Below are positions 3,221-58,531 of a DNA stretch of 64,000 nucleotides, in pieces. The stretch's first letter is position 1, and every line of letters starts with the position of its first letter. The DNA is from Pseudogymnoascus verrucosus. Lineage: Eukaryota. A program made the position numbers and the translations under genes. Below the pieces are notes generated by a model, which worked only from the letters and a program-made list of their open reading frames with translations, was not told the DNA's origin and did not search any database. The stretch is taken from assembly GCA_001662655.1 (NCBI GenBank), contig KV460214.1; one strand, written 5' to 3'.

Positions 3221-4502
3221 ATGTCAACTTCTGTGAGCGCAGATTGGGCCCTGGAATCTATCCTCTCTTCTTGCTATCTCTATATCTAAGATAGCCAATA
3301 TTGTTTTCCGATGAGCCATGCTGTCTCCACACAAGATGCCGTTGAGTTATGACTTTCAACAGAAGCGAGTCTAAGTAGCCCCTTAAAGCTGGTGCAGATT
3401 CGGAGTTATTGACAGCAACAGAGAGACCTCCAACGGTGAGACTTCGAACAGCGTCCCGCTTTCCCCGCCACTGGGCAGCATAAATCTGGATGGTAAAAAA
3501 GGCATCGTCTAGGTCTCTTATAGTTACTTCGGTTGGACCATGGAGGTAACAGAGCTGGAAACATTTCTTCAGGGCCAGCATTTGGGGCCTTCTCGCAGAG
3601 TACCAAGTAGATGGTGCCACCATTATCTCCAATCAAGCCTCATCAAATGGCCATCCCTGGAGACGAAAAATAAATAGGAGCCTAGGTAACCATTATCACT
3701 TGATTTTATTTGGCAACAAGAAGAGATGTAACTGCGAGATATATAACCGGATCTGAGAACAGCATGAGAGGAGAAAAACTGGTGGACGTTATTGCAACTC
3801 AAATAAACACAAGAGTTGCAGCAGTGTCTACCGACTATATAAACAAGTTCAATTTCTTCGTCGTTGAGTGTAAAGCACCCAAACGGTAGACGCAAGAGAG
3901 AACCGTGGCTAGAATCGGATCAGTCTACAACCTCGTTCCTAGCCGCGAATGCGAGGCTCGCGTCATATTATGCTGTTGCTACCGGTCTTCGTGTTGTCGT
4001 TCCTCTTTCTTGCTACCGCACCTCTTGCTACCACTACTACATCCTGGTGAGTTGACGGCCCATGTTAATTTTTAGGTTAGCGTATTTGTTCATCGCACCC
4101 CCGGCGCCCAAGAGCATTCTCTAGCATCCTCTCCGCGTTTCTAGCTGAGATTTGAAAGTTGATAAAGTTGGAGAGATAGACAGATGATGGAGTTAAGGAC
4201 GTAGTGATGACGAAGTGAAGGGAAATGACATACGGAAATGGAGAACCTAAAGTGGATGAATAATTCCGTTGCTGCCATCTCGCCACATAACTGTAATACC
4301 TTCTTTACTTCGAGTTTCCCTCCCTCCTATCATATTGTATTGAATCGCACCGCAAATTTAGTAAGATTTGAAATTATTCTAGTTATGCCAACCCCTAATT
4401 TTTTGGAGATGATGTAAAAATTGGATGAATAGTCTGGTATTGTCGCCGCAGCTATCTATTTCTATGTATGGTTTATTCCACTTATATTCTGCCGAGAGCA
4501 CC

Positions 4503-4652
4503 GGGGGGGGGGGGGGAGCTGTCCAAGACTTTGAAGTACATATGGTATCAATTCCAATCTTTGCANNGGGGGGGGGGGCCGGGGGGGGGGGGGGGGGGGG
4601 GGGAGCTGTCCAAGACTTTGAAGTACATATGGTATCAATTCCAATCTTTGCA
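4503..4652. other. Poly-G tract and NN gap with a duplicated flank (probable assembly artefact)
   Basis: Poly-G + AGCTGTCCAAGACTTTGAAG...CTTTGCA occurs twice, identically, on either side of 'nn' at 4566-4567. Confidence 0.75.
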
Positions 4653-5376
4653 GAGTCCCTCTTCGGCTTTTCGGCCAGCACAATGCCACCTTTGGAGCAG
4701 CCATCATTGCCTGCACGTTTCATATTCCCATTCTCAAGAGCACAGGGATTATGGCTTGTTAATGGACATGCCCGGCCCCAATTCCGGCCTTGAGAAGAAC
4801 TCTGCCCCAAATGACGACGCTGACAGGCATAATCTAGTTGGAAAAATGCCATAACACTCCGCCAGCCAACAGTCCGTTGGCCTCCGTGGGCCTCATCCAT
4901 CTGCGACCTCTAAATTGCCCATTCGAGTTAGACCACACATGGCGTACACAGATGGCGGCCCGCACCGATCACCGATTGGACACGACGACGCTATTCCCAT
5001 TGAGGCTGTGCCAATAGTATGCACGGGGTTGGGGTACGTACCTCCACACGTCCAATCGCCGTACTTGATGCCTCGACCCTCTCCAACTCTCACCCATTTA
5101 GCCAAGAGATGGACCCTGCACCACCCACTAATCGCCCACTAATGGTTGACAGATGGATGTAAGGGCTTCCTCGGGGGTGTCAGGATGGAACCCTCAGATC
5201 ACCAGCACGCATATACCCATGCGGTCCACGACAGCCGACCTCGACCTTACTCAGCAGGACAACTCACTCAACCTCGCAACCCCGCCGGCGACCAGCTCTG
5301 ATGGCGATATAAGCACTCATCCCGCCGCTCCCGACGAATGTAGCATCTTCTAGGATCGCCGACGACGCATCTCACC

Positions 5377-6661
5377 ATGCGGCGCATCAATCTCCGGCGC
5401 GCCGCCGTGGTTCTCGGTCTCTTCTCTCCGATATCAGCTATACTCGTCGCGCCCGATTCCGACTGCGCCATCAGCTGTGGAAACGTCCTCGACGCGACTA
5501 CGCCGCCCGATATCGCATGTGGAGATAATAAATTCGGCAGCGGGGTGGGCCAGACCTTCAAGGCATGCGTGGAGTGCGAGCTAAAGAGCACTTATGTCGA
5601 TCCGACGGGCCTATCCGATTTGACTGCTGCGATCTGTATGTATCCCATATACCCTCTGTTATTCTCGTACGCGATGCTGATGGCGGCGCGACAGATAACC
5701 TGCGCTATGCGGCCGACTATTGCATCTTCAACGACTCGAAGATCGCGACCACGCCATGCATCACCACCTCCGCCTGCGAACCTTTCCTCGACTCCCTAAC
5801 TTACCATAACAACATCGCTCCATCCGGCGCAACCGACTACGGTTACTGCAATCAATGGGATGACTCAGACATATTGAGATGCCAGAACTGTGTCGCAGCT
5901 CTGGAAGAAGAGGAATACCTCGTTAACTGTACGCCCCTTCAATCCCCCATATGAGCCCTGCTAATATCCCACCCCCAGTCATGACCATCCTCAGCGCAAG
6001 CTGCCAGCAGAAACCTGGAAAGGGAGCCCTCATCGGCGTAGAAGGCGACCCCTTCTCTGGCTCGCGCGTGTCAATCACCAAGCCCTACTCCTCCGCCGAC
6101 ATAATTGCATCCTCGTTCAACCCGCCCTCCGGCCCCCTCGATCTAGGCGCCAAAATCGGCATAGCCGTCGGCGGCTTCCTCCTCATCCTCATCGTCCTCG
6201 GGACCTGCATAGTCTGGCGCGGCCGCCGACGCCGTCGCGCCATACTCGCCAACTACGCTGGATCTCCCGCCATGGCACAGGCGCCGCGCTGGAAGGGCAC
6301 GGACGACAGCCCTCAGAGCATGAGCAGCGGCGCCTTCATGACCAAGGCGTCAAATTACCAGTGGCCCGCACAGTCCACTGATGACAGCCCTGCAAGCGCG
6401 GTCAGTAAAGGAACCGGAGGAGCAGGAGGGGCCGGTTTTAGTCCGTACGTGAGCCAGCATACGAGCCCGAGTGGCCCAGCCCCCGGAGAGTTCCCTCACG
6501 TCCCCATACCAGCTCCATATAGGAGAGAGAGCATTGGAAGTTTGCGCCCGCAAGGAGAGTTAATCGAGATGAGTCCACTTGGGGAGAGTGAAAGGGAGAG
6601 GTGGGAGAGAGAAGCAGGGGCTGTAGGATTTGTGCCTGCCCCTGCGCCGACTAGAGGATGA
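5377..6661 (+). CDS. Cys-rich type I membrane protein, paralog A (family often annotated 'LPXTG-domain-containing' hypothetical protein in fungi)
   Basis: Exons 5377-5635, 5695-5928 and 5979-6661 with GT-AG introns. Signal peptide; Cys-rich ectodomain (SDCAISC...FKACVEC...YNLRYAADYC...PCITTSAC...YGYC...RCQNC...NFMTILSASCQQKP); TM GAKIGIAVGGFLLILIVLGTCIVW followed by RGRRRRR; tail with FSPYVSQHTSP. Confidence 0.85.
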
Positions 6662-6730
6662 TGGAGCAAGGGCGGTGAGATTCGTGCCTGGCCCTGAGCC
6701 AACTAGAGGATAATGGAACGAAGGGGGTGG
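6627..6730 (+). repeat. Imperfect 52-bp tandem duplication spanning the stop codon of paralog A
   Basis: GATTTGTGCCTGCCCCTGCGCCGACTAGAGGATGATGGAGC vs GATTCGTGCCTGGCCCTGAGCCAACTAGAGGATAATGGAAC. Confidence 0.7.
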
Positions 6731-9653
6731 CAATGTTTGTGACTGCCGGAATCAGGGACGGGCGGTGGCATGGATAGGGTCTCGGCGTAAATGTTTGCTG
6801 TCAGCTCCGCCCTTGGTAGATAGCCGATGTGACTGTGGCGAGCCTCGCGCTATCGATGCCACACTAAATATTAAACCACTACCACTCCCTTGCTTCCCCG
6901 CCGTCCAATCCCATCTGCATTCCATGTCTCGCGCCAGCGCCCCCTCGCAGCCGCGCACGCTTATCAATGCCGCGCTGCACTCGGGCTTACGTCTTATCAC
7001 AGGCGCCGCCCCCGCGCGAGTCACTCTACACGATGCACGCCCCGATGGGGTAGGTGGCTGCGTGCGCAAGTCTTGCCTCATCTGTCTTAAGTAGACTCGT
7101 AAGAGGGGTCACGCTGGCCGGGTAGCTAACGGCTGAGACCGCCACCAACATGTTGGTTTTCTCGGGGTGGGGCACAAGAAGGGCAATGAGGTGTTGGATG
7201 GAGGCGGTGGAGGGTGTGCGCGAGACAGAGAGGGGTGGGGACTAGACTGAGGGTGAGTTGTTGGTGGTGGGGAGGTGGATTGGTAGATTGCATAGAAGGG
7301 ATGGTGGCTTGAGGGGTATTGCTGTGATCGGCGGCATGTTTGGATTGGCAGAGAGTTCGGAGTAGTAGCGTGCTTGGAGAATGCTTGGAAAGTTCCGAAC
7401 CAGCAGGAGCATTCATCCAAGCGCGCCTGTATATTAAACAGACCTATAGCGCATCCGGTAGGCTGGTCTGCACCTCCAATCCCAGTCATTCGCCGAGAAC
7501 GCGTATGCACGCATCGTTCGTCTTGTCCCCGCCGCACATAGTTCACCGGACCGAGCTCCACTCTTGTGTTGGACATTCTTCATCGTCGTTGGCCGCGGTC
7601 TACTAGTATTGCCGTGCTTATGCCCCCAAACCTTGTCTTGACTCGAACTCTGCGTCTAGGCCCCACGACAAGAGAGGAACGTGAAAGCGCTGGCAACATC
7701 TTGTTGGCTGGCTCTTCCGACGCTACGGCGCTTGTTATAGTGGAGCGCGCGGACGTGCGTTAGTGTAAGACAGCGATGCTACCATCCCCTCCCAGAGGCG
7801 CGATAGTCCGCGATTTTAGAGGGTTACACTCTAGTTGGGGGCTATCTCGACGTGACAGTCGGAGGGAAACCCCGACCACCCGCACCCAGATACAAGTCAA
7901 GAATCGGACAAATCGGAGATGAGACGTATCACCAACAAAATAGAGTGCTCCGTGGAAATGGGAGGGGAACGGGAAGCAAGGTCGGTACCCACCAAGGCTG
8001 GGAAAGGAAAGGCTTGATGTGATTGGAACTGTGGAACCTGCATCACAATGAGATTTACCCGTGTCACCGGGCGATGCCGCAACAGTGGACCCTTCCCCTT
8101 TCCTTTTCGTAGACCCTCAATCTCCACTAGTTCTCGGGCTTGACCTTGCCTCGCGTTACGCAGCGGCTGTGTAATTGTTTGTGCCCCGTACGTGTCCTGT
8201 TCCTTGATGCTAGCGGCGCTCTTTGGGCTCCCTTGCTTGGAGCCAGCAACGTTAGAACACAGCAGCTATCGACGTACGCACAGTGCTGGTTGAGTAGTGA
8301 GCGCGGGGAGATGATTATCACTGTACTGCGCAGCTCTCGCACAAGTTCAAAACATAGTGCTACGCGACACCACACTACAGCACATCATACTCGGCCGAAT
8401 TTCTCTCGTCAAATCATACGTTGTGTTGCGTCCCAGCAAACCGCTACCAGCGCCTAATGACTGCCGCTCATTGGCCTCTGTCAGGGGTTGTCACTGGTGT
8501 CCGCCCCTAGCAGAACCACCTACCCTAGGTGGATGGTGGCGTTTGATCTGATCTGTCGACTCGCCCGTTCTCATCGGCTTTAGTTACACTGCATCGGAAA
8601 TCCTCGACAAGGTGAAAGTAGTGAGATTAGTGACACTTGGCAACTCAATTTCCTGAGACGTCGAGAAGCGGCCGGAATGTAGTGATCGACAAGACAATGT
8701 GTTTGCTTTCTTTCGTGCCATCGATGCACCGGCCATCACGTAAGTGATGTGTGCCTTCTTGTGAGACGACCTTGCTTGCACTACGTGAACTCAGCTCAGC
8801 TTCCAGTTCTCCGACTTTCATTCGTGAGTGACAAATCACCAGAAGAGAGCATCCCTTGCATGATTGGCCTACAGTGATCCAAGGTATCCATCTTGAGGGC
8901 TGCACATGGGTTAAGGAACGCGCATAGCCTTCCCGCAGGGGGGGTACTTTTGCCGCGCCGCCGACGACATTCAGGCTGCAGCGAGAATTCTATGAGAGTG
9001 TATGCGGTGCCACCACCTCATTGCTCCGTAGGTGGCCTGCGCCTTGCGTTTGCCACTTCCCGGAAGGAGAGACAGCAAGCGGGCTAGGTTGCCTAGTGCT
9101 AGAATCTGCCGTATGGGATGCACTGCATACTCCCCGTTAGGCTGCCCGAATGCGGGAGGACATTGTTGTACATGCCGAACAAGGCCCTGGGTGGTTGTTG
9201 GATGTTTGGTGGTGAGTGAAAGGCTGCTTAAGTACCGCATGTGGGACGTCGATGGATATGAAATGCACCCTCAGCCCTCTGGCACATTGTCCTCTTGAGT
9301 ATATATCGAGTGTTGCCGGCGAGATATAGAATGAGGCTTTGACCCAGAGTATTGAAGTTCTCTGGATGCTGATGAGCTTCTGCACTGCTTGTGGCTAGGT
9401 GGACTGGAATGAGAGGTTAGTCATCCATACGAGGCAAGCTTATGATAGCTCACCTGCTGCCATGCATCTTCACGCATCGTTGGAACTATTAAAGACCAAA
9501 TGCTTCCTTCCAACGTCCAACAAACTGACGGTGCATTGCAGCCTCGTCAAACGGCTTGCTATGAGAGGTTCGGCCTCAACCAACATCAACCTCGACGCCA
9601 CCGACATACCCAACAACATTGCCACAGCTTTGCTCCAATATTAATCCGCCAAG

Positions 9654-10619
9654 ATGTGTCTTTGGTGGCGTAACCGCGAGCCCATCGAAAGCTCTTTCGA
9701 CCCGCGTTTCGGCTCTGCTGCCATTACGGCCCCAACCTCGGGAGCGTTCACCGATCCCTCCACGGCCCCTCCTCTTACCGTCGCCATCCACTCCGCCGGT
9801 ACTGTCGACCAACCGCCCCCATCACCACCCATGTCCTCCATATCTCACCTCCCAAAATTCCCCAACGCAAAGCCACCCTCTTTAAATCTCGCCCGCTCAA
9901 ATAGAAGCAGCGACGCACCATCTATCCCACAACCGCTCACATCGAAATCTGCCCAGTCACACCATTCCCACCACTCTCATCACTCACTCTCCACCAGCAC
10001 CCAATTCTCCAGCTACAACTCCACGCCCTCATCTCCAGCCTCCCAGCTCCAACCCTCCCCGCAATGGCCCAAAACCTCCCCCGGCATTGGACGGCCAACA
10101 AGCCCCGTCCCGGTCCACCAGGCCTACATCCCCGCCGATCAGCTCAGCATAGGCAGCAAGTTGAGCCCAGGCTTCTCCGCCAGCAGCGCGCCAACACCCA
10201 CCACGAACGGTCCACGGACAGGCAATTCTGCCACAACCACTGTGACGAATGGTTGGGGTAGCGCTCAACCCTCGCCGACAAACATTAAAACATCATCCAT
10301 GCCACCTACTCCTGCGTCCTCCCCGCCCCTACCACAGCTACCAGAGGTGCATGGCGAGTTCCCGCAGTTCCCACAGCCGGTACAGAGCATAATTCTGCCC
10401 CCGGTGGACCAACAGCAGCAGCAACAGCCTCGCCAGTCCATGCAGCGACTCTTTGGCATCCAGGGCACGCAGGCATCCCATCCGCAGAGCAAGACGAGGA
10501 TGAACAGGATTACGCTTCCGAGTCTGAAGCTTGGGGCAGCGCCGAAGAGGAGGCCGGCGAAGACGTGGGATGAGAGGTCGCCCGAAAGTGATGTCGAGCA
10601 GTGGCCAGGGAGTATGTAA
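9654..10619 (+). CDS. Pro/Ser-rich protein, paralog B: homologous only to the cytoplasmic tail of paralog C
   Basis: 321-aa ORF with ATG in good context (ccaagATG) and an in-frame TAA at 9642-9644. N-terminus MCLWWR...FDPRFGSAAITAPTSGAF matches C's CFKWRR...YDPRYGSSSISPPTDGAY; C-terminus ESDVEQWPGSM matches C's ESVEQWPGKM. Confidence 0.75.
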   Translation: MCLWWRNREPIESSFDPRFGSAAITAPTSGAFTDPSTAPPLTVAIHSAGTVDQPPPSPPMSSISHLPKFPNAKPPSLNLARSNRSSDAPSIPQPLTSKSAQSHHSHHSHHSLSTSTQFSSYNSTPSSPASQLQPSPQWPKTSPGIGRPTSPVPVHQAYIPADQLSIGSKLSPGFSASSAPTPTTNGPRTGNSATTTVTNGWGSAQPSPTNIKTSSMPPTPASSPPLPQLPEVHGEFPQFPQPVQSIILPPVDQQQQQQPRQSMQRLFGIQGTQASHPQSKTRMNRITLPSLKLGAAPKRRPAKTWDERSPESDVEQWPGSM

Positions 10620-11205
10620 GGACCGAGGGTAGAATGGTGGCGGAGGTCGAGTGTTCTGGGCGTATAGCGGGTGCATTTTATAGGCCATGCGAGGATGGGA
10701 GTTTGTTGATTGGAACTGGGCAATTGTGTATGCCATTAGTAATTATGTGCAGACGACTTTCCTCCTGGATACGGGAGGAGCCTTCTCCCTAGTGGTGGAT
10801 ATATATCATTCATTAGCAGACAAAGAATGCAAGACAAATGTGTCCATCACAACCACATAATGCCTACAAAAAAGGAACGCACAAAGGGTCATGTCAACCT
10901 CATAATCACAATAGCATGTTTGAAAGAACATCTTGGAAGCTCTTGGCCACAGCTATAACAGTGTTGTATTAATACATCTGGGATTAATGTGCTCGTATTC
11001 AGAGCTATTAACCAGATGAATAAATTCACTCTCTGGTATTAAAAGCGGAGAAGGTCGTCCAGAGGAAGCTGCGACCTTGGTGGTTGCCTTGTTTATATTT
11101 TGAACTTCACCCAACTTCAGTTTGTTATGACGCAACTCGATCGTTCCTTCCCTCACGCGTGTATCCAAGCCTCCGATAAACTCGCCGTGGTGCTGACAAC
11201 ATGGT

Positions 11206-12351
11206 ATGTTAATCAAAGCAGCATTTGGAGTAATTACGCTAATTACCAACGTGAAGGAGGATACCAACGTGAAGGAGAAAGCCAATGTGCAGGAGGATGC
11301 TAAAGGGCAGGAAGATGCCAATGTGCAGGAGAAAGTCAACGTGCAGGAGAATGCCAATGTGAAGGACAAAGGCAATGTCCAGGGGAAGGACAATGTGCAG
11401 AAGGATGCCAATGTCGAGGATGCCAATGTCGAGGAGAAGGACAATATGCAGGAAGATTCCAATGTCCAGGAGGATTTCAATGTCCAGGAGGATTCCAATG
11501 TCCAAGAGGATTCTAATATCCAGGAGAATACCGGTGTGAAGGACAAAGCCAATGTCCAGGAGATGGACAATGTGCAGGATGATTTCAATGTCCAGGAGGA
11601 TTCCAATGTGAAGGACAAAGCTAATGTCCAGGAGAAGGACAATGTCCAGGAGGATTTCAATGTCCAGAAAGAAGCCAATGTCCAGGAGAAGGACAATGTC
11701 CAGGAGGAAGACGATGACATGAAGCCTCTGCCCCGCGATAAGCCCATTCGCGTACTCATCTCCATTTACACAAAATTGCTCCAAAGTGGTGACAGGATCC
11801 AAGAATTCCGCGGCCATATCAATGAGGCCCTTCCTATCGTTTTCAAGGATCCCGCTTTCGACACTGATGTACCAGTGGACTTGAACCTCCTGTCAGTCGA
11901 GATTAGAGTTAGACACGCATTTGCTGTCCTCGATGCTCACCACGATGCCTATGACTTTCTCACCGCTCACGAGGCAGAGAACAACAAGCTCCCTGTTTAC
12001 TCAGTGAGGCTTGGCAAGCATGGTGTGGTGGTTCAGTTTGAAAGGGCACGCTACCTCGACCAGACGATCAATTTCACAGTAGGCCAGTTGCATAAGTTGA
12101 ACGGATATGAAGTGCAGCCGCCTTTTCTTCGAGACTACACGCTTGGTCCTGTCGAGTATCGTAATAGGAGGGAATTCAAGGCGCTACTTCCAGAGAAGGA
12201 AGCGACCAAGGTGGCCGAAGAGAAAGACATTAGAGAGAATGAAGTTGAAGAGAAAGAAGTTGGAGAGAAAGATGTTGGAGAGAAAGACGTTGGAGAGAAA
12301 GACGTTGGAGAGAAAGTGGCAGAAGAGAAGTTGCCAGACGAGGCCGCTTAA
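11206..12351 (+). CDS. Hypothetical acidic repeat protein (26 NVQE(D/K)x hexapeptides, globular middle, EKDVG pentapeptides); true 5' end uncertain
   Basis: 381-aa ORF. The repeats preserve frame and the unique segment (PIRVLISIYTKLL...) looks like a folded domain. Upstream exons may exist but could not be joined in frame. Confidence 0.6.
   Translation: MLIKAAFGVITLITNVKEDTNVKEKANVQEDAKGQEDANVQEKVNVQENANVKDKGNVQGKDNVQKDANVEDANVEEKDNMQEDSNVQEDFNVQEDSNVQEDSNIQENTGVKDKANVQEMDNVQDDFNVQEDSNVKDKANVQEKDNVQEDFNVQKEANVQEKDNVQEEDDDMKPLPRDKPIRVLISIYTKLLQSGDRIQEFRGHINEALPIVFKDPAFDTDVPVDLNLLSVEIRVRHAFAVLDAHHDAYDFLTAHEAENNKLPVYSVRLGKHGVVVQFERARYLDQTINFTVGQLHKLNGYEVQPPFLRDYTLGPVEYRNRREFKALLPEKEATKVAEEKDIRENEVEEKEVGEKDVGEKDVGEKDVGEKVAEEKLPDEAA
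11248..11712 (+). repeat. Coding minisatellite, ~18-bp unit (AATGTCCAGGAGGA/AA...), 26 units
   Basis: Directly visible; units counted from the translation. One unit is 15 bp. Confidence 0.9.
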
Positions 12352-12881
12352 GGGTAGATGCAACACACACGAGAAAGCCCTACAGGAGCGAGATACAGCA
12401 CGGAAAAGCAACAAACAGAAAAGGATCGCACATTTTATACCGTTCAAGAAACCCAAGAAGCCAAGAGGTTAATACCAATGAGATAAATTATGAGGTGGGT
12501 TGACTGACAACAACAATTGGCCTTTACTAACGGTAGTAGATGTTTACTGATTTGTTCTGCTGTACCCGTTGAGCATTGCGTGGAGATGGCAAAGTTTCGG
12601 CACCTGAGCTGTTGTGTTGTCTGCAGCTATGTTCATTCTCTTTCAGACCAACCACATGAAATGCACCTTTACGGTCTACTCTCTGTCCCACATTGCATAT
12701 GATACCCTGACTTCACATTGTAACCAGCAAACGTCATAAACCCCCAAAGGGCAATCAATTCCAGCTACGGAAGGGCCATATTACTTCCTCCATCCCTCCC
12801 CAATTTTCAAATCTACAATGCCCAATCCAAGCCCCCAAAACGCCATAAGTACAAAACCTAACCACCCTAACAACCCAATCA

Positions 12882-14927
12882 TCACATCTTCCCCGGCCAC
12901 TGCTCCACACTCTCCGCCGCACTCAACGGACTGACCGTCTCCCTCCCCACAGCATCCTGCCCTCTAAACTCAAACTGCCTCCTCTCCCCCTCAAACCCCC
13001 CATCACGTAACCTCGTCCTCGACTCACTCCTCTCCCTCCTCGGCCGACTCCCACTCCTCCTCCTCCCCCTATCCTGCCTCACGCCCTCCTCAGCCTTCTC
13101 CCCTTCCTCCCCATTCCCAGCACGCGGCAACAACTTCGCCGCCAGCTCCCGCAGACTCGCGTTGCGGGATAACGGCACGGGTCCATCAGATTGCACAGCG
13201 CTGATGGGCACCGATGCTGGGACAGGAACGGTGTTAGGGCTCGAAGTAGAGATGCCGAGGCCGATGAAGGAGCGCATATCCATTGTGTCACGGCGCGGTG
13301 CGGGGATGGGCATGGCGATGATGGGGACGGTTTGTTTGTCGAGGCGTTGGAGGGGGGGTTGGGGGAGGGGTTGGGTGGGGGGCGGTGCGAGGCGGGGGGC
13401 GTAGTCGCGGGGGGCGTAGTCACGGGGGGCGTAGTCACGGGGGTTGTAGGTGGGGAGGGGGATGGGGGGTCGGTGGTTGTGGAGGGCTGTTGGGTAGGAC
13501 GGTGGGGAGGTGGCGGAGGGAGGGGAGAAGGTGGTTGATGTGGAGAGAATGGAGGAGGCGCGGCCGGGGCGGTTGAAGTGCATGTAGGTGGAGGATGAGG
13601 AGCGGGGGTTGTAGGGCGCTTGTGTGGGTTGAGTTGGTGCTGAGGGTCGTTGGGTGGGTGCGATGACGGAGTTCATGCGGAGAGGGTTTGGAGGGCCTGC
13701 TGGGGCCTGTGGTGGTGCTGGTGCCTGTGTTGGCAGTGGGGTGATAGCACGCATGCCAACGGGTGCAGCGGCTTGAGTCAGTGGTTCTGGCGACCCAACT
13801 AAACTTGATCGGCCAGATGATATACTCGAGAACTTTGTGTAGGCGCTGGCTGGTGGGCTTGCACTGCGGTTAATACCGTCTAAAGTGATACTGTGACCAT
13901 TCCAGTCTTCAGAGACAGGCTCGGCTTTATAATTCGAGTACGGTGCCGGAATAGGTTCTGATTTGTACGAGTAGGCGCCGTCTGTAGGAGGGCTGATGCT
14001 GCTCGAGCCATAGCGTGGGTCGTAATGGGTATTTAATTTGGGAGAATTGCGGACACGGCGCCATTTAAAGCAGTAGATAAACGTGGCGGCGGCAATGATC
14101 AGAGCGACAAGCACACAAGCAACTGCAATGCCAGCTTTGGCGCCTGTGCTAAGGCCATTTGAGGAAGTGGGAGTTTCTTTGACGGGGTTGAAGGGGGTCG
14201 AGGTGATGTTGACAGGGAATCCTGAGAAGACGGACCCATCGAGGCCGATGAGTGATGATTGTGATGGGTGTTGGTTGCAACCAGCTTCGAGAGCAGTGAG
14301 AACTAATATTGTCAGTTTTGCAAAATGGAGGCGATTTTGAATGCACTACTAACAGTTTGTCACATAGATATTGCCCACCATGTGCTTCAGGCATGTGTAG
14401 CAGACCGGCTTCCGATGTACAAAGCTCTGGCTGTCCGCAGCACAGTAATCGAAGATATCTCCTGCCTCTATACTTTCATTCCCTGCACTGAGTGATTTGG
14501 AAAGCGGGTTACACGTCGTATCGACCATGCAAGGGCCGCTCAATGTCTCAGCGTTGTTGGTTCCAAAAAGGCACCCTGTCCCAAATTAGTAAATGGAGAG
14601 AATAGAGATATTTCTGTACTCACAGTCCGAGGCGAATCTCAAATTATAGATGAACCACATTTGGTCATTTTCAGCATCGGTGCCGAAGCTGCTTCCTTGC
14701 AGACAATTCAGGCATTCCTCGAACTGCTGTCCCTTCTTGGAAGTGTAGTCTTCGTCATTGCATACGATGTCTCCCTCGTGTGTCCCTGAAAGCGATTGGT
14801 CTAATGTGGAGCCGCCATTGACACACACGGTAGTGCATGGCGAGTTGGGCGTTACTCGTAGGGCAGATGCGAGGGTAACGGTGAGGAGAAGAAGTATGAA
14901 TCTGGTCCTAAAGAATGGCAAAGCCAT
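12882..14927 (-). CDS. Cys-rich type I membrane protein, paralog C
   Basis: Exons 14927-14624, 14575-14354 and 14302-12882. Signal peptide; LRVTPNSPCTTVC...FEECLNC...YNLRFASDWCLFG...PCMVDTTC...FDYC...CYTCL...NFLTALEAGCNQHP; TM GAKAGIAVACVLVALIIAAATFIYC; long Pro-rich tail with YAPRD repeats ending EQWPGKM. Confidence 0.85.
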
Positions 14928-16359
14928 CTCAGCAAAGAGATAGGGCGAGGTTCATATGAGGCTCCAGGCAAAGCAATCAGTCGAACGGAAACTGCAGCCA
15001 GTACAGCGGGGGCTGACAATCGTTGCCGGCGTCGTCCTCGTGAGAAGAGATGAGAAACGAAGCAGTAGAAGAGGGAAAGAAAGCTAGTTCTTTCAATGGA
15101 AGTCCCAACACCAGTGATCCTACACGGCTCTCGAAGAAAGGGAACCTCAATGCCTCAAAGCCATCAAGTATGCAAAGGGAAACAAAGCCAAAGGAAAACA
15201 GCAGAGCTACAGACTATATCTTAGCTCACGCACCTACCACGCTGTCCCAGGGCTACCCGCAGGCCCACGAGCAACATCCACACAACCTACCTTATGTGAG
15301 GGCCCCCGTCACGGTCTCCCATTGGCAGGTCGTTGTCCAGCGAGGCGTCTTTGTGCTGGATATGGAGACGGCTGGTCTAGTCCCCGTCGAAGGCTGGAAG
15401 GAAAGCGATTTAGCCCTCGTTATTGTTTCGTGGGATACGCCACCTCCAATAGAGGAGGCCATATGCATTGGCCTGGATATAGGCGCCGTGGGCCGCAGAT
15501 GTAGCGCCCTAGCGTGCGGATGGGGTCAGCGACAGGCCTCCTCCTGTCATGTTGCTGTGGTGGTGTTTATGATGATGAGAGCTGTAGCATAGTTCTTCAC
15601 CGCTTGAGATGGAGGATGCATATGAAGTCAACATTCTAATCCTCCTCTTCAACCTGTCTGTCTTCCAGTAAATCATAACTTCACAACTGTCTCATTGCTC
15701 AATTTCGTGTTCTTTGTTCCTTCCAAACGGAAAGTTCGACCTACATACCACATCCGTCCCCACACGCACCAGATAAGCAGCTGCCCGCCCACGATCCTAA
15801 GCGAAGCCACTCACTTCACATCATAAGCGCTCAACCCAGCTCCACGATCATCTACACGCTCTCATTCGTCCACGACCTCAGACCTGTAAACGCTCTTCAG
15901 CGGAGACAATTGTCCAATATCAAATCAGGACTCACGTGAATGGGGTGATGCTGTGCAGAGTAAGCCTTGGACCTGCCAACTTCCAGGATCAACATTACCA
16001 ATGAACGATGAACTCCACCCGAGTTTATTGCTAGGCTAAGGGCGCTTCCGGGAACCCCTTCGTGAAATTGGAAGTTGCCTGGCTGGCGGCTAGTGGATGC
16101 CACAATACTGAGGTTGTTGGGCTCCTCGTGGCATAAGCGCGCCGAGAAGGAATGGAGTAAGTGTTCTGTTGGTCTCTTTCTATTTGACGCGGGTATTCGT
16201 GTCACGGTTGGAATTGCCAGCTGTACAACAACAGGTAGTATATTTCGATTCGTATTCACTTTCTTTTCGGGCTTGTTGGTTTTACCAAGTTTTGGTCTTG
16301 TTGGTTTTCCACGTTCTGGTCCTATTAGCTTTGCCACGTTGCTCGTGGTGTTGGTGGTT

Positions 16360-16532
16360 TTCATTGACTTCCTATTATAGACCAGGGAAAGCGATGATCA
16401 CTGAAGCCAATGAGAGCATTGTTGACTTCACATCACAGGTCCGGTAACAGGTGATCACTGAAGTCAATGAAGACTTCATCAACTTCAAACTATAGACCAG
16501 GAAAAGCGAAGATCACTGAAGTCAATGAGAAC
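16360..16532. repeat. Three ~57-bp tandem units, each bounded by imperfect 12-bp inverted repeats
   Basis: Units begin with variants of TTCATTGACTTC and end GATCACTGAAG(T/C)CAATGA(A/G); TTCATTGACTTC and GAAGTCAATGAA are reverse complements. Confidence 0.7.
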
Positions 16533-16725
16533 TTTTCTGGATAATAATGGCACAGCGTTTACTACTGACGATTCCTACGAGCCTGAGTGGCTGAATCCTC
16601 CACACCCATTACTGCTTTATGAAACAAATCATAAAATGACCCCCGGTCTCCCAAAAAACCCCAGCCTCCAGCAGGAAAAACCATTTCCATATCCAACATA
16701 AAACCCTCATCTCTCTCGACATCTC

Positions 16726-18051
16726 CTACTGCCTTGCCCTCGGTGGTGGCGGCGGCATACCCATCGACGACGAAACCGTGAACCCTCTCGTCGCCGCCTC
16801 CATCGCCCATTCATTGTGCAGCCTCTGATCCTCCTGCTCCTTATCGACCGGCGTCACCACACTCGAAACCTTCTCCATCTCATACCCATGCTGCTGCGGC
16901 CACTCCCACTGCTGGGGCGCTACCGCGTCCCTCGCGCTGACGGGGCTGTTATACTGACTCGAGTACGGCGAGAAGCCGTTCTTGTCATTCAGATACGCGT
17001 TAGCGGACATGGGACTCTCTTCCTGAACGCCGCTCATGTTCGACTCCCACTTTGTGGTCACGCGCGGCGCGGGCAGCACGCGATTCGTCGAGCCGAAGCC
17101 GGTGTACTCCTCTGCGCGGCGCTGGCGTTCGGCGATTCGGGCGCGGCGGCGTCGCTTACCGCAGCAGACGATCGTGGTTCCGATTATAGCGAGCAGGACA
17201 CAGATTCCGGCAATGGCGATGCCGATGCGGGTTCCGAGGGACATGGTTGGGGCGTTGGATGTGGGTTTAGAGTCGCCATGGCTCGTAAAGTCCGTGAGGT
17301 CGACGTAGTCTCCGCCAAAGAGGTCTTTTTGCAGGGGGAGGGGGGCGCCATTTTGGTTAGCACAGCCTGCGAGGATAGTGATGAAGTCTAATGCGTGGTT
17401 AGTATTGTATCTTTGTCGTCTCCAAGGGTCAGGCTTACAATTTGATAGGTATGTTTGGTCGCCTTGTCGGATACAATCCTTGCATTTATCCACTGAAGCC
17501 GTCGGAGGAATGCTCGGGCAGTAATCGTATGTGGTAATATTGGGAGACAGGCCTTCGTATTGGAGACTACTCTGGAAAGGCTCACATGCCCGACTTGTGA
17601 GGCACGGCTAACAAACGATCAGTATATGCAGTATGAGATTCAAGGTTGGGCAATAAAGCTCACTGAATTCTGCACGGTCGAGTTGCCTGGAAAACCCCAC
17701 ATACAACTACTCATGGCATACCGAATGTTATCTTCAAAATCGCAAGTCAGCACTGACACATCTACATGAGAGAGTGATAGAAAGAAGCTTACAGAGTACC
17801 CATTTCAGGTCTGTATCTCCCGTTTTGGAGTCCATCGCAGTGCTTGTCATTTGGCATGATATGCATTTCGAGAATTCCTGACCTTTGGCCGTATTCAAAT
17901 CTGCTTCGGCGCAGAGGATCTCAGAGCCCGTCGTCGACGTGACATCCCCGCATAGCGACGCACACGGCGACGTTGGGACTGTTCGTATGGCAGCGCTCTG
18001 TCCGACGAATCCAGCTGCCACTATCGCCGTCGACGGAATTAAAAGACGCAT
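16726..18051 (-). CDS. Cys-rich type I membrane protein, paralog D
   Basis: Four exons, start MRLLIPSTAIVAAG at 18051. IRTVPTSPCASLC...FSKCISC...YNIRYAMSSCMWG...PCLTSRAC...YDYC...KCKDC...NYFITILAGC; TM GTRIGIAIAGICVLLAIIGTTIVCC followed by GKRRRRAR; tail with FSPYSSQYNSP. Confidence 0.85.
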
Positions 18052-19202
18052 GGCTAAAATATCAAATGGGTATCTTCTCGCAAATAGTAACGATGGTATG
18101 AGTGGTATGGAGTGGGTATACGGTGCTGGTCCAGTAACGAGCGGGACTGGTAGCTCAACGTCTATCTTGACCAGCAAGAGATGGGACAGTATGCCATTAC
18201 CTTGAGCATCAAGAAACGTAAGACAGACACCATGGAGACAGAAGAAGTTCTATATACCTCCCATCCCATCACCTACCTAGGAACTCCCTCCCCTCCCCTC
18301 CCCGCCCCCCAAAAGCCACACATCCGTCTCGCACAAGTGCAACACCAACGCGGTAGCGTAAACAGGAACCCTCCCACAAGATTCGATCAATATAATATCC
18401 ACCAGAACGGTCACCCCGCGACAACCAACGCGCATTAGCCAGTCCCATCCCTCATCACACTTCTTTCTCATGCAGGGGACCATCGGTGCGAGTTGCCCGA
18501 TGGCAATCCCGCCGCGCGATTGGCTTGGCTGAAAGCTTGGCGGCCTCGATCACCGTCAACCATGGGGCATTCACACAATAGTGATAGTGTGTGATAGTGA
18601 TGAGATGACGGCGGCCCCCAATGAGGGCCCATGAGGCGCACGAAAGCGACGGGACGAGGCACAACACCCGTTTGTTTAGTGGGCGGGCCGGCGATTGGGC
18701 CTGGGGATGTTGGTCTATGGCCCCCAACCGCCCGGAGCGGAGACATCCATCGCTACTTTCTCATCTGTGGCTCCGGCGGTGGCTGCGGCACGCTCGATTG
18801 AGAATGTCGGTGAGCACGACTGCCGTGAGTCTGTGTGAGTACTACTCAGGCCAGTGCATAGAGTTACAATTTCTCTGGATAAATTGCCGCCGGTGTGAGA
18901 CCTGTCGCAGTGTAACAGGGTGAATCAGGGCAGGATGTACGGCGCGCTGTGCCCTTGGGGACAGGCGATTTGGTTGCCCAGACCCGCTAATACAAATCTG
19001 TAAATGCAAGGATTCTCCCAAATGGACTGTACGTACCTCATGGATCCTTCAGGCCTCTACTCGTAAAACCACCTACGATTCACGCTGTATACACGATCAC
19101 CAGCGATACCCCGGTAATTATTCTGAGGGTGTTTGCGATGACAGCCGGCTAGGAAGTAATTTGTGTATTTGATCGTTGGCGTGGGCCTTGGAGAGAGGGG
19201 AG

Positions 19203-20524
19203 ATGGCGGCCATCAACTATAATGGCAGGACGGCGTGGGCCATTGCCCTGACGGTGCTGTTTCTGATATGGACGGTCAAATTTCTGCAACCACCCGCAGT
19301 GAGCCATGTACGAGCACTTGCCTACCCGATATACAGAATGCAAAAGCTAACGATGGAGCAGTTACAACCTGCCAGTCCGGTACCAGCAGTAGCAAAAGAG
19401 GCCCCGAAGGTCAACCCCTCTATACCCAAACCGCCGTTGCCCTCGGAGGCCTCAAACATCCAAGGCGGAGGAGCGCATGTCGCAGTACCAGACTCGAAGA
19501 AGGAAGCTGCTGTTGAAGAGTCAGCAAAGGCAAAAGAAGCCGCAGCTGCTTCCACCAAAGCTGCGACACCACAACCTACATCCGCGAAGGGTCCATCAGC
19601 CTCTCCCACCGATAGACCCCTAATTCTCTACGCCTATAGCGAAACCCCGAATGCCCGCACAAACCTAATTTTCTTCCTGGCGCATGGCCTCCACCAGAAT
19701 GCCGACTTTGTGTTTGTCATGAATGGCAAGTCTAGCGCTACTGCTCTCATCCCCAATAAGTCGAATATACGAATCGTGCAGCGCGAGAATGATTGCTACG
19801 ATCTTGGCGCATACGCGGAGGTTCTCACAACGGACGATTTCTACAAGGCGTATCAGAGGTATATCCTTATGAACGCTAGTATTCGTGGACCGTTCTTGCC
19901 TGCGTGGGCGTCGGGATGCTGGAGCGACATGTATCTGGGGAAAATTACAGATAAAGTCAAGGTTCGTTAACTGCTATCTACTTTTCTCCCTTACCTCACT
20001 ATCCAGAACTTGGTTCCTGCCAGCACATGCAGCTACTCATCCTTACCTAACGAAAGAGTCTCACTAACACCATCCAGCTCGTCGGCATGACAGGAAACTG
20101 CCAACCCATCTTCCACGTCCAATCCATGATCTGGGCCACCGACCGCACGGGCATCGAGCTCCTCCTCCACCCCCCCGCGGACCCCAAGCTCCCAGCCGAC
20201 AAACAAGAAGTCGGCATCAACTCCTGCTTCCACACCTGGGAGACAGCCGTGCACGCCGAGATCTACGCTACCCAGATCATCCTGTCAGCGGGCTACGAGG
20301 CGTCAGTCATGATGTCTGCGTTCCATGCTAAGAAGACGTTTGTACAGGACTGTGATAAGGGCGGGAATGGTGATGCGTTGTGGAATGGGAAGTATTATGG
20401 TACGAATGTGCATCCGTATGAGACAGTGTTTATGAAGTCGAATCGTGATATTGATCCGATACTCATGACGCGCTTGACGGAGTGGACGGATGGAGGGGGG
20501 TATAGCAGCTATGACCACTGTTGA
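19203..20524 (+). CDS. Type II membrane protein with RgpF (rhamnan synthesis F)-like putative glycosyltransferase domain
   Basis: N-terminal anchor AWAIALTVLFLIW, Pro/Ala stem, then PLILYAY...DFVFVMNG...QRENDCYDLGAY...YILMNASIRGPF...LVGMTGNC...HVQSM...HPYETVFMK. Introns 19299-19361 (in frame, probable) and 19962-20077. The RENxxYDxGA...NxSxxGP pattern recalls RgpF-like proteins. Confidence 0.7.
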
Positions 20525-20645
20525 GGAGGGGTTGTATGATGTGTGTGTATATATAATGACCACTGTTGAGGAGGGGTTGTATGATGTGTGTGTATATATA
20601 ATGACCACTGTTGAGGAGGGGTTGTATGATGTGTATGTATATATA
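20511..20645 (+). repeat. 45-bp tandem repeat x3 overlapping the stop codon of the RgpF-like gene
   Basis: ATGACCACTGTTGAGGAGGGGTTGTATGATGTGTGTGTATATATA at 20511, 20556 and 20601 (one mismatch in the third copy). Confidence 0.95.
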
Positions 20646-21061
20646 ATGGATTTAGCTTCGGATTGGGACATGGATGGCATTATGAGCGGCCAGGCGTCCT
20701 TGTATGATTTTTCTGGTGGCAATCATGCTCGCCACATATAGGGGGGAAAAGCGTTGCTTACATAGTGGAGAGCGAATAAAAGGTTGCTAGGCAATCTGAT
20801 GTCTCTTCGCCCACAATGAGCGGGCTCAATCAATCGTACTTGTTTCCATTTTGATGACATGAGATTGTGGTGAAGTCAATAAAGCCTCTAGCTTTCTTAT
20901 GGGTAGTTTAACGAGCGGTTGGCAGATGAAACTGTGATACCAGCACAAAGCGCTAACTGCTTCATGAGGTGTAACACCAACAATATGAATTGTATGTAAA
21001 GCTACACCTAATGATACTACCACTCCCAAACTCAGTACCGTACGCCCAAACACAACATCCC

Positions 21062-22549
21062 CTACTTCCTCGCAAACTTCGCCTTCGGGAACTCCAACGG
21101 CAGCCGCAACCTCGCAAACTTGTGCTGCATAGCAGCCGCCTTGTCCAACCCCAACCTCTTCTTCTCGCCCTCATTCGCCGCCATGATCCGCGCCCCAATC
21201 TCCGAAAAGTACGTCTGCATCTGCTTCCCCTCCAGTTTCAGGTCCTCGCGCAGGTCATACACGTCGACCTCGAAGTTATCCACGATCAGCGCCAGGGCAC
21301 ACACATTCGTGATCAGCAGATCCATCTGGAACTTTGACATCATGCCGTGATCCGAGAACTTGCGCTGAATGTTGCCCGCCACGGCCTCCGGAATACCCGG
21401 CATGGCCTTGCGAAGCTCGTCCTTCTTGGGGAGCGCGCGCACGCCCCGGCGCGGGATGGTGGCGCCGTAGAACTCGAGGATGGTGAGGAGGTAGCGGAGA
21501 ACTTTTAGTTTGGGGACGCTGGAGGAGGCGAGGAGGATGCGGTCGGAGACGAATTTGGAGCTGGTGATGATTTGCTCCTTGGCTTTGACGGCGTCTTGCC
21601 ATTCTTTGACGGGGATCACTTTCATGATCTCTGAGCCGACGAGGTCGTCGATCGTGTAGACGTCCTTGGGGCTCTCGGCGGCGAGGTTCGCGCGGGGGCG
21701 GGGTTTCGACTCGTCGACTACGGTCTGAAGTTCTTCGGTCGTGGCCATCCCGGATGTGACTTCGGCCATGTTGCGGAGCATGGCTGCGGTGACGGCATCG
21801 TGCTTGACTGGCTCGGTGTTGGCGAGCTCAGCAGCTGTTCTGGGCTTGGAGATGGCGTTCTCGGTAAGAGATGCAATAGCCTTCTTCGACTTCTTCGTTC
21901 CGAATGTTTGGCCGAGGTCGTTTCGCAATTCTCTCATATTCTATTTTTGTTAGTATTTGCATATAGCGTAGTATCGCAAAGTAACATACCTTGTAGTCTC
22001 CCTTCTCCGCAAATGCTTCTGGTGCAGCATTCTGTGCTCTTACAATCCCTCTCACAGTCATTTTCCTCGACTCGATAACCTGCAGGCCACCCGTCGCTGG
22101 GTCATAGACACCGATGTAGTGCTTTAATAAACTGTCTGTGCCGCCCGCCTCTTCCTCCCTACCAACATAATCAATCGCTGGGTGCTCTGAAGACTCAATT
22201 AAGAGTTCATTGGTGGCTATCGATCCGCTCTGGCCTGGCCGTTGAGGGGCATTGCTGCGGCGCTTGGTGTATGGTTTGAGGGACAACGACTTGTCGAAAG
22301 CGAGGCCAGGAGTAGAAGCTAAATATTGTAAGCATTATTCAGTGTAATGATAGTATGAGGAGCCGCCAATTTGCACGGCGACGAGGGAGAAAATAATCTT
22401 TACATACCTACGATAGGCGCCCAATCGTCGGTATTCTGGACGACGGTTACCGTGACTTCAGACGCCCCAGGAGTTTCCACAGCGACTTTTTTGCTCGACT
22501 TCTGTGAGCCATCTGCATTTCTCTTGCGTTTCTTGGTAGGTTCCGACAT
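21062..22549 (-). CDS. RPA49: RNA polymerase I subunit A49-like
   Basis: Start MSEPTKKRKR at 22549; introns at ~22408-22319 and ~21989-21941. Contains HYIGVYDP, LGQTFGTKKSKKAI, YFSEIGA and a C-terminal ARLRLPLEFP typical of A49. Confidence 0.9.
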
Positions 22550-33057: not shown

Positions 33058-34658
33058 ATGGCCATGACTGTGGCAAAGAAAGGAGGGGATGTGGATTATA
33101 GCATCAAGCCGGAGGCTGTCGTTCCTGCAGTGGATACCAGCACTTGGCCGCTGTTGTTGAAGAATTATGATAAGCGTGAGTTTGATCTTGGGTCAATGGA
33201 CCGCAACATACGTGGTTGTGTATGTGAACTGCATGCTGATAGTTGTTTGAACAGTTCTCGTTCGCACTGGACACTTCACCCCAATCCCGAACGGCTGCAC
33301 GCCACTCAAGAGAGATCTCAAGTCATATGTTAGCTCGGGTGTCATCAACCTTGACAAGCCCTCCAACCCATCTTCTCACGAAGTTGTCGCATGGGTGAAG
33401 CGCATGCTCAGGTACGCATATTTTGAAGCCACGGCGTGTTGGTGCTACTAGCGAAAAGATGCTAACAAATTTGCGCAGAGTCGAGAAAACTGGACACAGC
33501 GGAACCCTCGATCCTAAGGTCACCGGATGCTTGATCGTCTGTATCGACCGCGCCACCCGCCTTGTTAAGTCCCAGCAAGGTGCCGGAAAGGAGTACGTTT
33601 GCGTTATCCGTCTCCACGACAAACTGCCAGGTGGCGAGGCTCAATTCGCCCGCGCCCTGGAGACCCTCACCGGTGCCCTCTTCCAGCGCCCTCCTCTCAT
33701 CTCCGCCGTCAAGCGTCAACTCCGTATCCGCACAATCCACGAGTCCAAGCTGTACGAGTTCGACAATGAGCGCCACCTCGGTGTCTTCTGGGTCAGCTGC
33801 GAGGCTGGTACCTACATCCGTACCCTCTGTGTGCACTTGGGTCTGCTTTTGGGCGTTGGTGCTCACATGCAGGAGCTGAGACGTGTGCGCTCCGGTGCCA
33901 TGGACGAGAAGGTTAACATGGTTACTCTTCACGATGTCCTCGACGCCCAGTGGATGTCCGATAACACTCGCGATGAGTCCTACCTCCGCCGCGTCATTGC
34001 GCCGCTCGAGACTCTTCTCACCACCTACAAGCGCATTGTCGTCAAGGACAGCGCTGTCAATGCCGTCTGCTACGGTGCCAAGCTCATGATTCCGGGTCTT
34101 CTCAGATACGAGGCTGGCATTGAGGTCCACGATGAGGTTGTCCTCATGACCACCAAGGGTGAGGCCATCGCCCTTGGCATCGCACAGATGTCTACCGTGG
34201 AGCTCTCCACCTGCGACCACGGTGTCGTGGCCAAGGTCAAGCGTTGCATCATGGAGCGCGACCTTTACCCACGCCGCTGGGGCATGGGCCCAGTTGCTCT
34301 TGAGAAGAAGAAGATGAAGGCCGATGGCAAGCTTGACAAGTACGGTCGCCCCAACGAGGCCACCCCCGCCAAGTGGAACACCGAGTACAAGGACTTCAAC
34401 GCCCCGCTAGAGGGCGCACCTGTTGCCGCATCGGAGCAAGCCGCCGCACCAGCTGAGGAGGAGCCAACCGTCGACGCTGATGTCAGCATGATGACCGTGG
34501 ATGATGACAACGACAAGAAGAGGAAGAGGCACGAGGGCGAGACTGCGGAGGAGAAGGCCGAGAGGAAGAAGAACAAGAAGGAGAAGAAGGAGAAGAAGGA
34601 AAAGAAAGAGAAGAAGTCCAAGAAGGAGAAGAAGGAGGAGAGCGATGACAGCGAGTAA
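33058..34658 (+). CDS. CBF5: H/ACA snoRNP pseudouridine synthase (dyskerin)
   Basis: [43 protein letters not shown] domain and a KKE-rich tail; introns ~33176-33253 and 33412-33478. Confidence 0.98.
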
Positions 34659-46728: not shown

Positions 46729-46948
46729 TTACCCCGACAACCTGTTTTACCTGTTCCGTCACGAGATTCAAGAGGTCAAATGTACATTTATGTCACAAGC
46801 TTCAAATTAAATCCAACGGTTACACTAGGCATATATATCATTTCCATTTTAATACATATATATTGGGGGTGTCACTTACTTCCTCCCTTTGCGCTTATCG
46901 AGATTTAACTGATCTTGGTTGCCAAATTTTACTGCCTCGGCCATCGAA

Positions 46949-58444: not shown

Positions 58445-58523
58445 GATTGAAGTGAGCTGGAGAGTCTTGAGAGTTTGATACTGTGATGATGAGAGAAAGG
58501 AATTTGAGGTGGGATCGGGCACA

Positions 58524-58531
58524 GCTTTATA
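58524..58531 (-). promoter_or_regulatory. TATA box of cbh1
   Basis: TATAAA on the minus strand ~80 bp upstream of the ATG. Confidence 0.5.

Follow-up and report, generated by a model that had tools for sequence, protein, structure and literature searches.

We wanted to know what is encoded by a compact group of genes in the soil fungus Pseudogymnoascus verrucosus (Leotiomycetes) and whether these genes belong to one system. The group occupies positions 5,377 to 20,524 of a stretch of 64,000 nucleotides on contig KV460214.1 (assembly GCA_001662655.1), called the window below. An earlier note had described it as three Cys-rich receptor-like paralogs (A, C and D), a tail-only paralog (B) and an RgpF-like glycosyltransferase (E), and had suggested either a co-regulated system that makes, senses or anchors an extracellular polysaccharide, or a heteromeric sensor complex. 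The cluster is real, beyond a chance grouping, and its conserved core is a pair of receptor-like genes of two types, named S and L, not a polysaccharide pathway with E. The genes (lengths in amino acids, aa) are as follows.

5377..6661, + strand: gene A, S-type single-pass protein of 391 aa with a signal peptide, a predicted 12-Cys helical ectodomain, a transmembrane (TM) helix at about 224-242 and the tail motif FSPYxSxxxSP; exons 5377-5635, 5695-5928 and 5979-6661, introns 5636-5694 and 5929-5978.
9305..10619, + strand: gene B, tail-only L-type paralog; open reading frame (ORF) 9654-10619 (321 aa) in one coding exon, with an intron at 9416-9541 in the 5' untranslated region (5'UTR).
11197..12351, + strand: intervening ORF with acidic repeats, 384 codons from stop to stop, unrelated to the receptor family.
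12882..14927, - strand: gene C, L-type single-pass protein of 648 aa with a long P/S-rich tail ending in EQWPGKM; exons 14927-14624, 14575-14354 and 14302-12882, introns 14623-14576 and 14353-14303.
16726..18051, - strand: gene D, second S-type protein of 385 aa, with the tail motif FSPYSSQYNSP; exons 18051-17793, 17731-17664, 17607-17439 and 17387-16726, introns 17792-17732, 17663-17608 and 17438-17388.
19203..20524, + strand: gene E, type II membrane protein of 383 aa with an N-terminal anchor, a P/A/S stem and a predicted GT-A domain; exons 19203-19307, 19362-19961 and 20078-20524, introns 19308-19361 and 19962-20077.

Proteins A, C and E were identical, letter by letter, to public records P0294, P0308 and P0321, and the closest homologs of C exon 1 were Pseudogymnoascus members (84-92% identical). 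All 9 coding introns and the 5'UTR intron of B were skipped by assembled contigs from 3 of 4 sequencing runs (2 studies), whose RNA status was guessed and is not on record; for A intron 1 the length was right (59) and the position was placed 2 nt to the left. Contig cover was absent over 11257-12430, which carries no evidential weight. The intervening ORF between B and C combines some 25 short acidic repeats with a core free of repeats; it matched no family above cut-off, and its LED-repeat match was sub-threshold.

That A, B, C and D are real and paralogous genes is practically certain. Over their N-terminal ~250 residues, A and D are 34% identical, A and C 33%, and C and D 29% (E 1e-29 to 1e-38). 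The ectodomain scaffold and single TM helix proposed for A, C and D were borne out, with 12 Cys in each ectodomain and a single TM peak in each protein (KD19 2.7-2.8). The intron positions agreed as well: a phase-1 intron after the same Asn is common to all three, and the second position shared by A and D is a phase-1 intron in Tyr87; the first intron of C sits elsewhere, at Trp102. Since the L-type gene of a metagenome locus (L017) carries both introns (Asn and Tyr87), they are ancestral features of the family and give no sign of local duplication. A recent local duplication was also considered and is ruled out by the lack of DNA-level similarity among A, B, C and D, by the 29-34% protein identity and by the family-wide introns.

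A family profile, which included the low-complexity tails, retrieved 330 representatives at E<=1e-30 and 1054 at 1e-10, and the best 150 were examined. Among the matches listed, named members belonged to Sordariomycetes and Leotiomycetes, plus Vezdaea, Cirrosporium and Claussenomyces; the genera include Trichoderma, Fusarium, Pyricularia, Verticillium, Colletotrichum and Clarireedia. The 12 Cys were retained in at least 99% of 127 aligned sequences, and tail lengths ranged from 130 to 470 aa across the family. In the present genome, all ectodomain matches among the best-scoring candidates fell in the A-D locus.

An AlphaFold2 model of P0222, an ortholog of A (93% identical), predicted an all-helical ectodomain, with most blocks at a predicted local distance difference test (pLDDT) score >90, followed by a disordered tail. 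The ectodomain start reads PCxxxC...CxD, and an internal repeat of 2 x 6 Cys was weak (HHalign probability 45%). No Pfam or NCBIfam family matched pieces of A, C and D or 5 full-length members; a fold search with a full-length A-type model against PDB and BFVD returned nothing at E<=0.001; a profile search of PDB sequences gave TM and tail matches only; and the ESM Atlas gave two unnamed clusters at 0.80 and no named match. In a wider fold search, which used the full-length model and in which the TM helix filled most rows, the best ectodomain rows were a designed cage (Z 5.7) and the PMEI structure 1x8z (Z 4.4, root-mean-square deviation (rmsd) 4.5, 105 aligned), both within noise.

Could these proteins nevertheless belong to a known class? 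Wsc1-3, Mid2/Mtl1 and Msb2/Hkr1 are single-pass wall sensors of fungi, the Wsc proteins having a Cys-rich head. The family resembles them in its signal peptide, single TM helix, basic stop-transfer and disordered Ser/Pro-rich tail with short conserved motifs; as in these sensors, the protein is of type I, crosses the membrane once and bears its motifs in a disordered tail. It differs from them in lacking any WSC, Mid2 or mucin Pfam match and a long Ser/Thr stalk, and in its 12-Cys, all-helical head. The family would work like a single-pass fungal sensor, yet it stands outside every described sensor family tested. CFEM and Frizzled/GFR-alpha-type domains are small extracellular helical modules held by disulfides, as the ectodomain seems to be, although no Pfam or structural match to them was reported and the ectodomain has 12 Cys. 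In UniRef, homologs are labelled 'LPXTG-domain-containing protein' or, in Colletotrichum sojae, 'exo-alpha-sialidase'. An LPXTG/sortase-anchored identity was rejected as an annotation artefact: of 137 members, one has the LPxTG motif, which A, B, C and E all lack, and the tails are not short. The only sortase-type match was weak and fell on the TM/basic stretch (E 0.067), and the 'sialidase'-labelled member contained no Pfam domain.

By tail motifs, the family splits into an S type, to which A and D belong, and an L type, to which C and B belong. FSPYxSxxxSP was found in 19 of 27 S tails and in 0 of 115 others. Conversely, DxRFG...ITxP occurred in 18 of 27 Leotiomycete-type L tails vs 0 of 27 S tails, and P.H.AY in 22 of 27 and 29 of 43 L tails vs 0 of 27 S tails. 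QWPG was present in 20 of 27 Leotiomycete-type L tails, and a further group, L2, showed SFxCQ (27 of 41). These counts rest on hand-written patterns. A tree of 153 of 168 rows (15 were dropped for short coverage; SH-aLRT only, midpoint root) placed A and D in a 28-row S clade (SH-aLRT 95) and C outside it.

We then looked at whether the two types stay together in other fungi. Of 21 metagenome loci, ten had clear family genes and three distinct ones had enough flank for pairing to be assessed. In all three (L010, L016 and L017, Helotiales-like by best hits), L (+) and S (-) stood tail to tail, 0.9-1.7 kb apart, and in Clarireedia the L and S locus tags or accessions were adjacent in two strains. 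We are highly confident that the L/S pair is conserved in Leotiomycetes. The gene order in L017 is CBF5, UstYa, L, S, AA9, CN-hydrolase; in the present genome it is CN-hydrolase, A, B, the intervening ORF, C, D, E, RPA49, kinase, SAC3, CBF5. The CN-hydrolase gene is common to both (71% identical), as is CBF5, and this shared flanking order suggests that A and C are the likely positional equivalents of the L/S pair. Read locally, A, B, C and D follow the order S+, L+, L-, S-, that is, two nested convergent S/L pairs. The two housekeeping neighbours concerned are listed here.

21062..21940, - strand: exon of RPA49 (RNA polymerase I A49).
33399..34658, + strand: main exon of CBF5/dyskerin, a synteny marker that also lies beside the receptor family in L017, Verticillium and Colletotrichum.

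Consecutive accessions and fused gene models place the S gene directly next to CBF5 in both Verticillium and Colletotrichum. The fused models, P0344 and P0364, join an S-type protein to CBF5 and are likely annotation errors from the close spacing. Also in Colletotrichum, an L2-type paralog lies two accessions from the S gene, across a GH43 gene.

Gene B was confirmed as a tail-only paralog. Its ORF begins MCLWWR, at the point matching the TM end of full-length members, and matches L-type tails (best E 4e-7), with the three L motifs DPRFG..ITAP, HQAY and QWPG. It has no hydrophobic segment (KD19 maximum 0.36) and a single Cys, at position 2. An in-frame stop lies just upstream of its ATG, and the spliced 5'UTR was seen in one contig. 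Upstream of B (6600-9700), no ectodomain relic was detected (best tblastn E 0.003, no match to a hidden Markov model). B was 92-98% identical in 7 other records, and 97% over the first 45 residues, which indicates a maintained gene, not debris.

Within the genus, tail identity was 89% for C (15 pairs) and 97% for A (6 pairs), and at ectodomain residues ~140-170 identity was 67% (C) and 83% (A). These few sequences suggest the pattern expected of a receptor, with conserved disordered tails and a variable outer patch. A variable patch also calls to mind the linked allorecognition pairs of Neurospora, doc-1/doc-2 and cwr-1/cwr-2, which the S and L genes resemble as linked genes kept together with a possible surface or contact function. 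The locus could then serve self/non-self or cell-contact recognition, before or at hyphal fusion. The tight linkage of the paralogs, an outer patch more variable than the disordered tails, and a weak HET-domain-like ORF ~8 kb left of the window fit this idea; the variation, however, is moderate and lies between species, and eight named Pyricularia records fell in one 90% cluster, as did those of Verticillium, unlike deep allorecognition polymorphism. We regard a recognition locus as highly unlikely. As an observation apart, the region within 10 kb left of the window holds this weak HET-domain ORF and a BIM1-like copper-acquisition gene (L030:740-2530 and L030:6189-7457).

Altogether, the reading that we prefer is an old locus in which two paralogous surface proteins, S and L, each crossing the membrane once, serve as receptors or sensors; in Pseudogymnoascus this locus would be doubled and include a tail-only modulator. 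We give this reading about an even chance. That S and L are signalling receptors in one pathway is likewise evenly balanced. The conserved L/S pairing fits the heteromeric sensor proposed in the earlier note, and an S/L heteromer is conceivable, if doubtful; a complex prediction for A (22-250) and C (23-260), run with no alignments, scored 0.00, which is uninformative either way. Several points weigh against our reading. CBF5 and CN-hydrolase, two housekeeping neighbours, were kept as well, so the pairing may partly reflect inertia in a slowly rearranging block; the three loci with the pair all look Helotiales-like, and for Sordariomycetes an L1/S adjacency would be conjecture. C was placed with L more by its tail motifs than by the tree, where its branch is long, and relaxed constraint on a surface loop could also account for the variable patch. 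Finally, expression of the receptors was weakly correlated in Pseudogymnoascus destructans (Spearman rho 0.36 for A-C, 0.40 for C-D and -0.03 for A-D). These values come from the normalised counts of one copper-stress dataset (PMC12113139 supplement, 21 samples), from which 21 of 28 rows of one part were used and 7 near-zero ones dropped, with VC83_07895 taken as D by tag order only; among 210 local gene pairs, 11% exceeded rho 0.5.

The conserved neighbours CBF5 and CN-hydrolase would also suit structural or trafficking membrane proteins, such as wall tethers, Axl2/Rax2-like polarity landmarks or cargo adaptors, whose linkage would be the remnant of an old tandem duplication in a stable block. 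A conserved disordered tail would suit a landmark no less than a receptor, and expression in P. destructans was low and flat (median normalised counts A 38, C 9, D 28). Yet other flanking genes (UstYa, AA9, ApbA, GH43) turn over while the L/S adjacency stays, and a conserved tail-only gene with a variable outer patch would suit signalling better. We find this explanation rather unlikely.

What, then, is gene E, and is it part of the receptor system? E was confirmed to be a Golgi-type type II protein transcribed divergently from D, with 1.15 kb from ATG to ATG, while its description as RgpF-like came down to a sub-threshold Pfam match: exon 1 scored 14.3 bits against RgpF (PF05045; cut-off 25), matching weakly to RgpF positions 23-68. 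Full-length E had no RgpF match at E<=0.01, and a search of the genome gave none; among 43 E homologs, 26 matched it at E<=0.1 (best 7e-4). The GT-A-like fold expected for E held up better. The model of P0034, an E homolog 94% identical (predicted template modelling score (pTM) 0.74), showed a Rossmann-like GT-A fold (Z 12.6), superposing on hyaluronan synthase, KfiA and CHSY3 with an rmsd of 2.8-3.4 over 168-177 aligned residues, and its top Foldseek match was BoGT6a (E 6e-6); nucleotidyltransferases scored almost equally on this model (Z 12.2). A profile search of PDB sequences returned nothing for E. The sequence motifs of E are NASIRGP and HVQS, and in all 43 homologs NxSxRGP stands in place of DxD, with Asn substituting the first Asp (DxD at the site in 0 of 43). 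E resembles RgpF and BoGT6a in its GT-A fold, its weak RgpF match and the absence of DxD, and differs from RgpF and the solved GT-A enzymes in its score below the RgpF cut-off, its 7-13% identity to solved enzymes and its type II anchor. E is very probably a glycosyltransferase. Metal-independent GT-A enzymes without DxD exist (BoGT6a), and E is probably metal-independent. Three ~44-bp tandem copies lie over the E stop codon (20524-20650), where one contig skips 89 bp.

Searches for E homologs in viral contigs, in phages and by a GTDB pattern scan found none. The closest bacterial homolog found, unannotated, is a clear E homolog on a Paracoccus plasmid (HHalign 99.6%); in Paracoccus marcusii (L038:8983-9972), it covers the whole catalytic domain, is divergent from a GT2 gene and lies near an RTX-repeat protein. 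Two further E paralogs, 32-39% identical, were found in the present genome, both away from the receptor family. The third member (L032:2300-6128, G000:C49:230-234 kb) lies a short way downstream of a gene for a Mid2-like, Ser/Thr-rich type I membrane protein. The other, at G000:C9:258 kb, 52 kb left of the window, sits between two DUF5672 genes, a family scarcely covered in the literature searched; within 12 kb of it are a TPT-family transporter (sub-threshold match) and the genome's best match to a nucleoside diphosphate (NDP)-sugar 4,6-dehydratase.

G000:C9:255000-271100 (L031:3210-7447, L034:1-9234), 39-55 kb left of the window: putative glycan-synthesis cluster, in the order DUF5672 (-), E paralog (+), DUF5672 (+), TPT-family transporter (-), NDP-sugar 4,6-dehydratase (+).

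From its gene content, this cluster is possibly a rhamnose-glycan pathway. Fungal synthesis of uridine diphosphate (UDP)-rhamnose runs through UDP-4-keto-6-deoxyglucose (PMC5698552), and the dehydratase may be an enzyme of the UDP-rhamnose pathway, with rhamnose as the donor for E. That E is a rhamnosyltransferase is somewhat less likely than not; the Sporothrix rhamnosyltransferases described in the literature are treated in PMC12295706 as being of another, non-DxD type.

If A, B, C, D and E were co-regulated parts of one system, for making and anchoring or sensing a single extracellular polysaccharide, E should accompany the receptors. Within the genus it does: E is transcribed away from D, and its tag differs from that of C by two in six other Pseudogymnoascus annotations and by three in a further one; in yet another, C and E lie on separate short contigs. 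Among the loci examined, however, an E-type gene was adjacent to the receptor family only in Pseudogymnoascus. It was found in 0 of 21 metagenome loci; only two of these, L016 and L017, extend several kb beyond S on its upstream side (3.6 kb and 7 kb of sequence), and an AA9 gene takes the place there. In Phlyctema, 395 tags separate the S gene from the only E homolog listed for this fungus. In these loci, the linkage of homologs to RgpF-like genes that the earlier note proposed to look for was not recovered outside Pseudogymnoascus, and co-expression in P. destructans gave a divided answer: A-E reached rho 0.72, but C-E was 0.37 and D-E 0.07, and the receptors were weakly correlated among themselves, as given above. 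One copper-stress dataset from another species weakens co-regulation, no more than that. The GT-A fold of E speaks for the polysaccharide system, and its paralogs away from the receptor family, one of them in the DUF5672/TPT/4,6-dehydratase cluster, speak against it. We consider a functional tie of E to the receptors quite improbable, and the polysaccharide system as a whole very unlikely.

The neighbours of S genes elsewhere bear on the same question. The gene beside the S type is a carbohydrate enzyme in four lineages, differing each time (AA9, GH43, avenacinase-like, GT-A).

L016:12600-13700 and L017:15500-16500: AA9.
Colletotrichum P0353: GH43.
Magnaporthe oryzae MGG_04205: avenacinase-like.

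These enzymes could be counted in favour of the polysaccharide system, yet they are degradative, lineage-variable and were spotted after the fact. Under the reading of an S/L receptor locus, they would be in keeping with a wall or plant-derived glycan as ligand.

How such a locus might work can be outlined from these data. The ancestral state would be one tail-to-tail S/L pair, as in Helotiales-like fungi, which in Pseudogymnoascus would have been doubled (A and D as S, C and B as L). B would be one L copy that lost signal peptide, ectodomain and TM helix and was yet kept under selection. The ectodomain, presumably helical and locked by disulfides, may use the variable patch near residues 140-170 to bind an outside ligand; a wall or substrate glycan is the likeliest, a protein of a neighbouring hypha a possibility. 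The signal would run through the single helix to the disordered tails. There, motifs that are specific to each type and contain SP/TP and Tyr, probably sites for proline-directed kinases and signals for sorting, would recruit different cytoplasmic partners, with S and L acting in one pathway, perhaps as a heteromer. Lacking an input domain, B would still present the docking motifs of the L tail and act as an adaptor or decoy that needs no ligand, possibly held at the membrane through Cys2. E would stand apart as a Golgi-type glycosyltransferase, probably independent of metal, for a glycan of the cell surface, with rhamnose as the leading guess, and would have come to sit beside D in Pseudogymnoascus. 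In its fullest form, this would amount to a receptor system of two subunits, so far undescribed, in filamentous ascomycetes: its ligand-binding fold would be new, helical and rich in disulfides, S and L would be kept tail to tail, each type would signal through its own tail motifs, B would act as a decoy, and the ligand would be a wall or plant glycan; that all of it holds together is unlikely.

No functional study of the receptor family was found in the literature searched, which had subscription papers outside its coverage. The S gene of M. oryzae, MGG_04206, appears only as an 'unknown' H3K4me3 target with the Gene Ontology term 'mycelium development' (PMC7938624), and its neighbours are an avenacinase-like gene (PMC2832786) and MagC (PMC8208561). 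A link to the G-alpha gene MagC, two tags from the S gene, was considered and rejected: the G-alpha genes of the present genome are on other contigs. Elsewhere in the window, a ~70-bp unit at 4500-4660 is tandemly duplicated after a poly-G run with N bases, a likely assembly join. Further right lie weak PAN-match ORFs, an LtrA-like gene, a rhamnosidase-6H-like glycoside hydrolase and a GH7-CBM1 cellulase (38916-40825, 44995-45936, 46913-49477 and 56838-58540).

To our knowledge, few single-pass receptors have been characterised in filamentous fungi. The family found here, obscured by a mistaken 'LPXTG' label, is widespread among Sordariomycetes and Leotiomycetes; its S/L split, tail motifs, variable patch and natural tail-only allele open direct experimental routes. 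The E family would be an unassigned fungal GT-A family with a paralog in a nucleotide-sugar cluster, and is a candidate builder of rhamnose-containing wall glycans.

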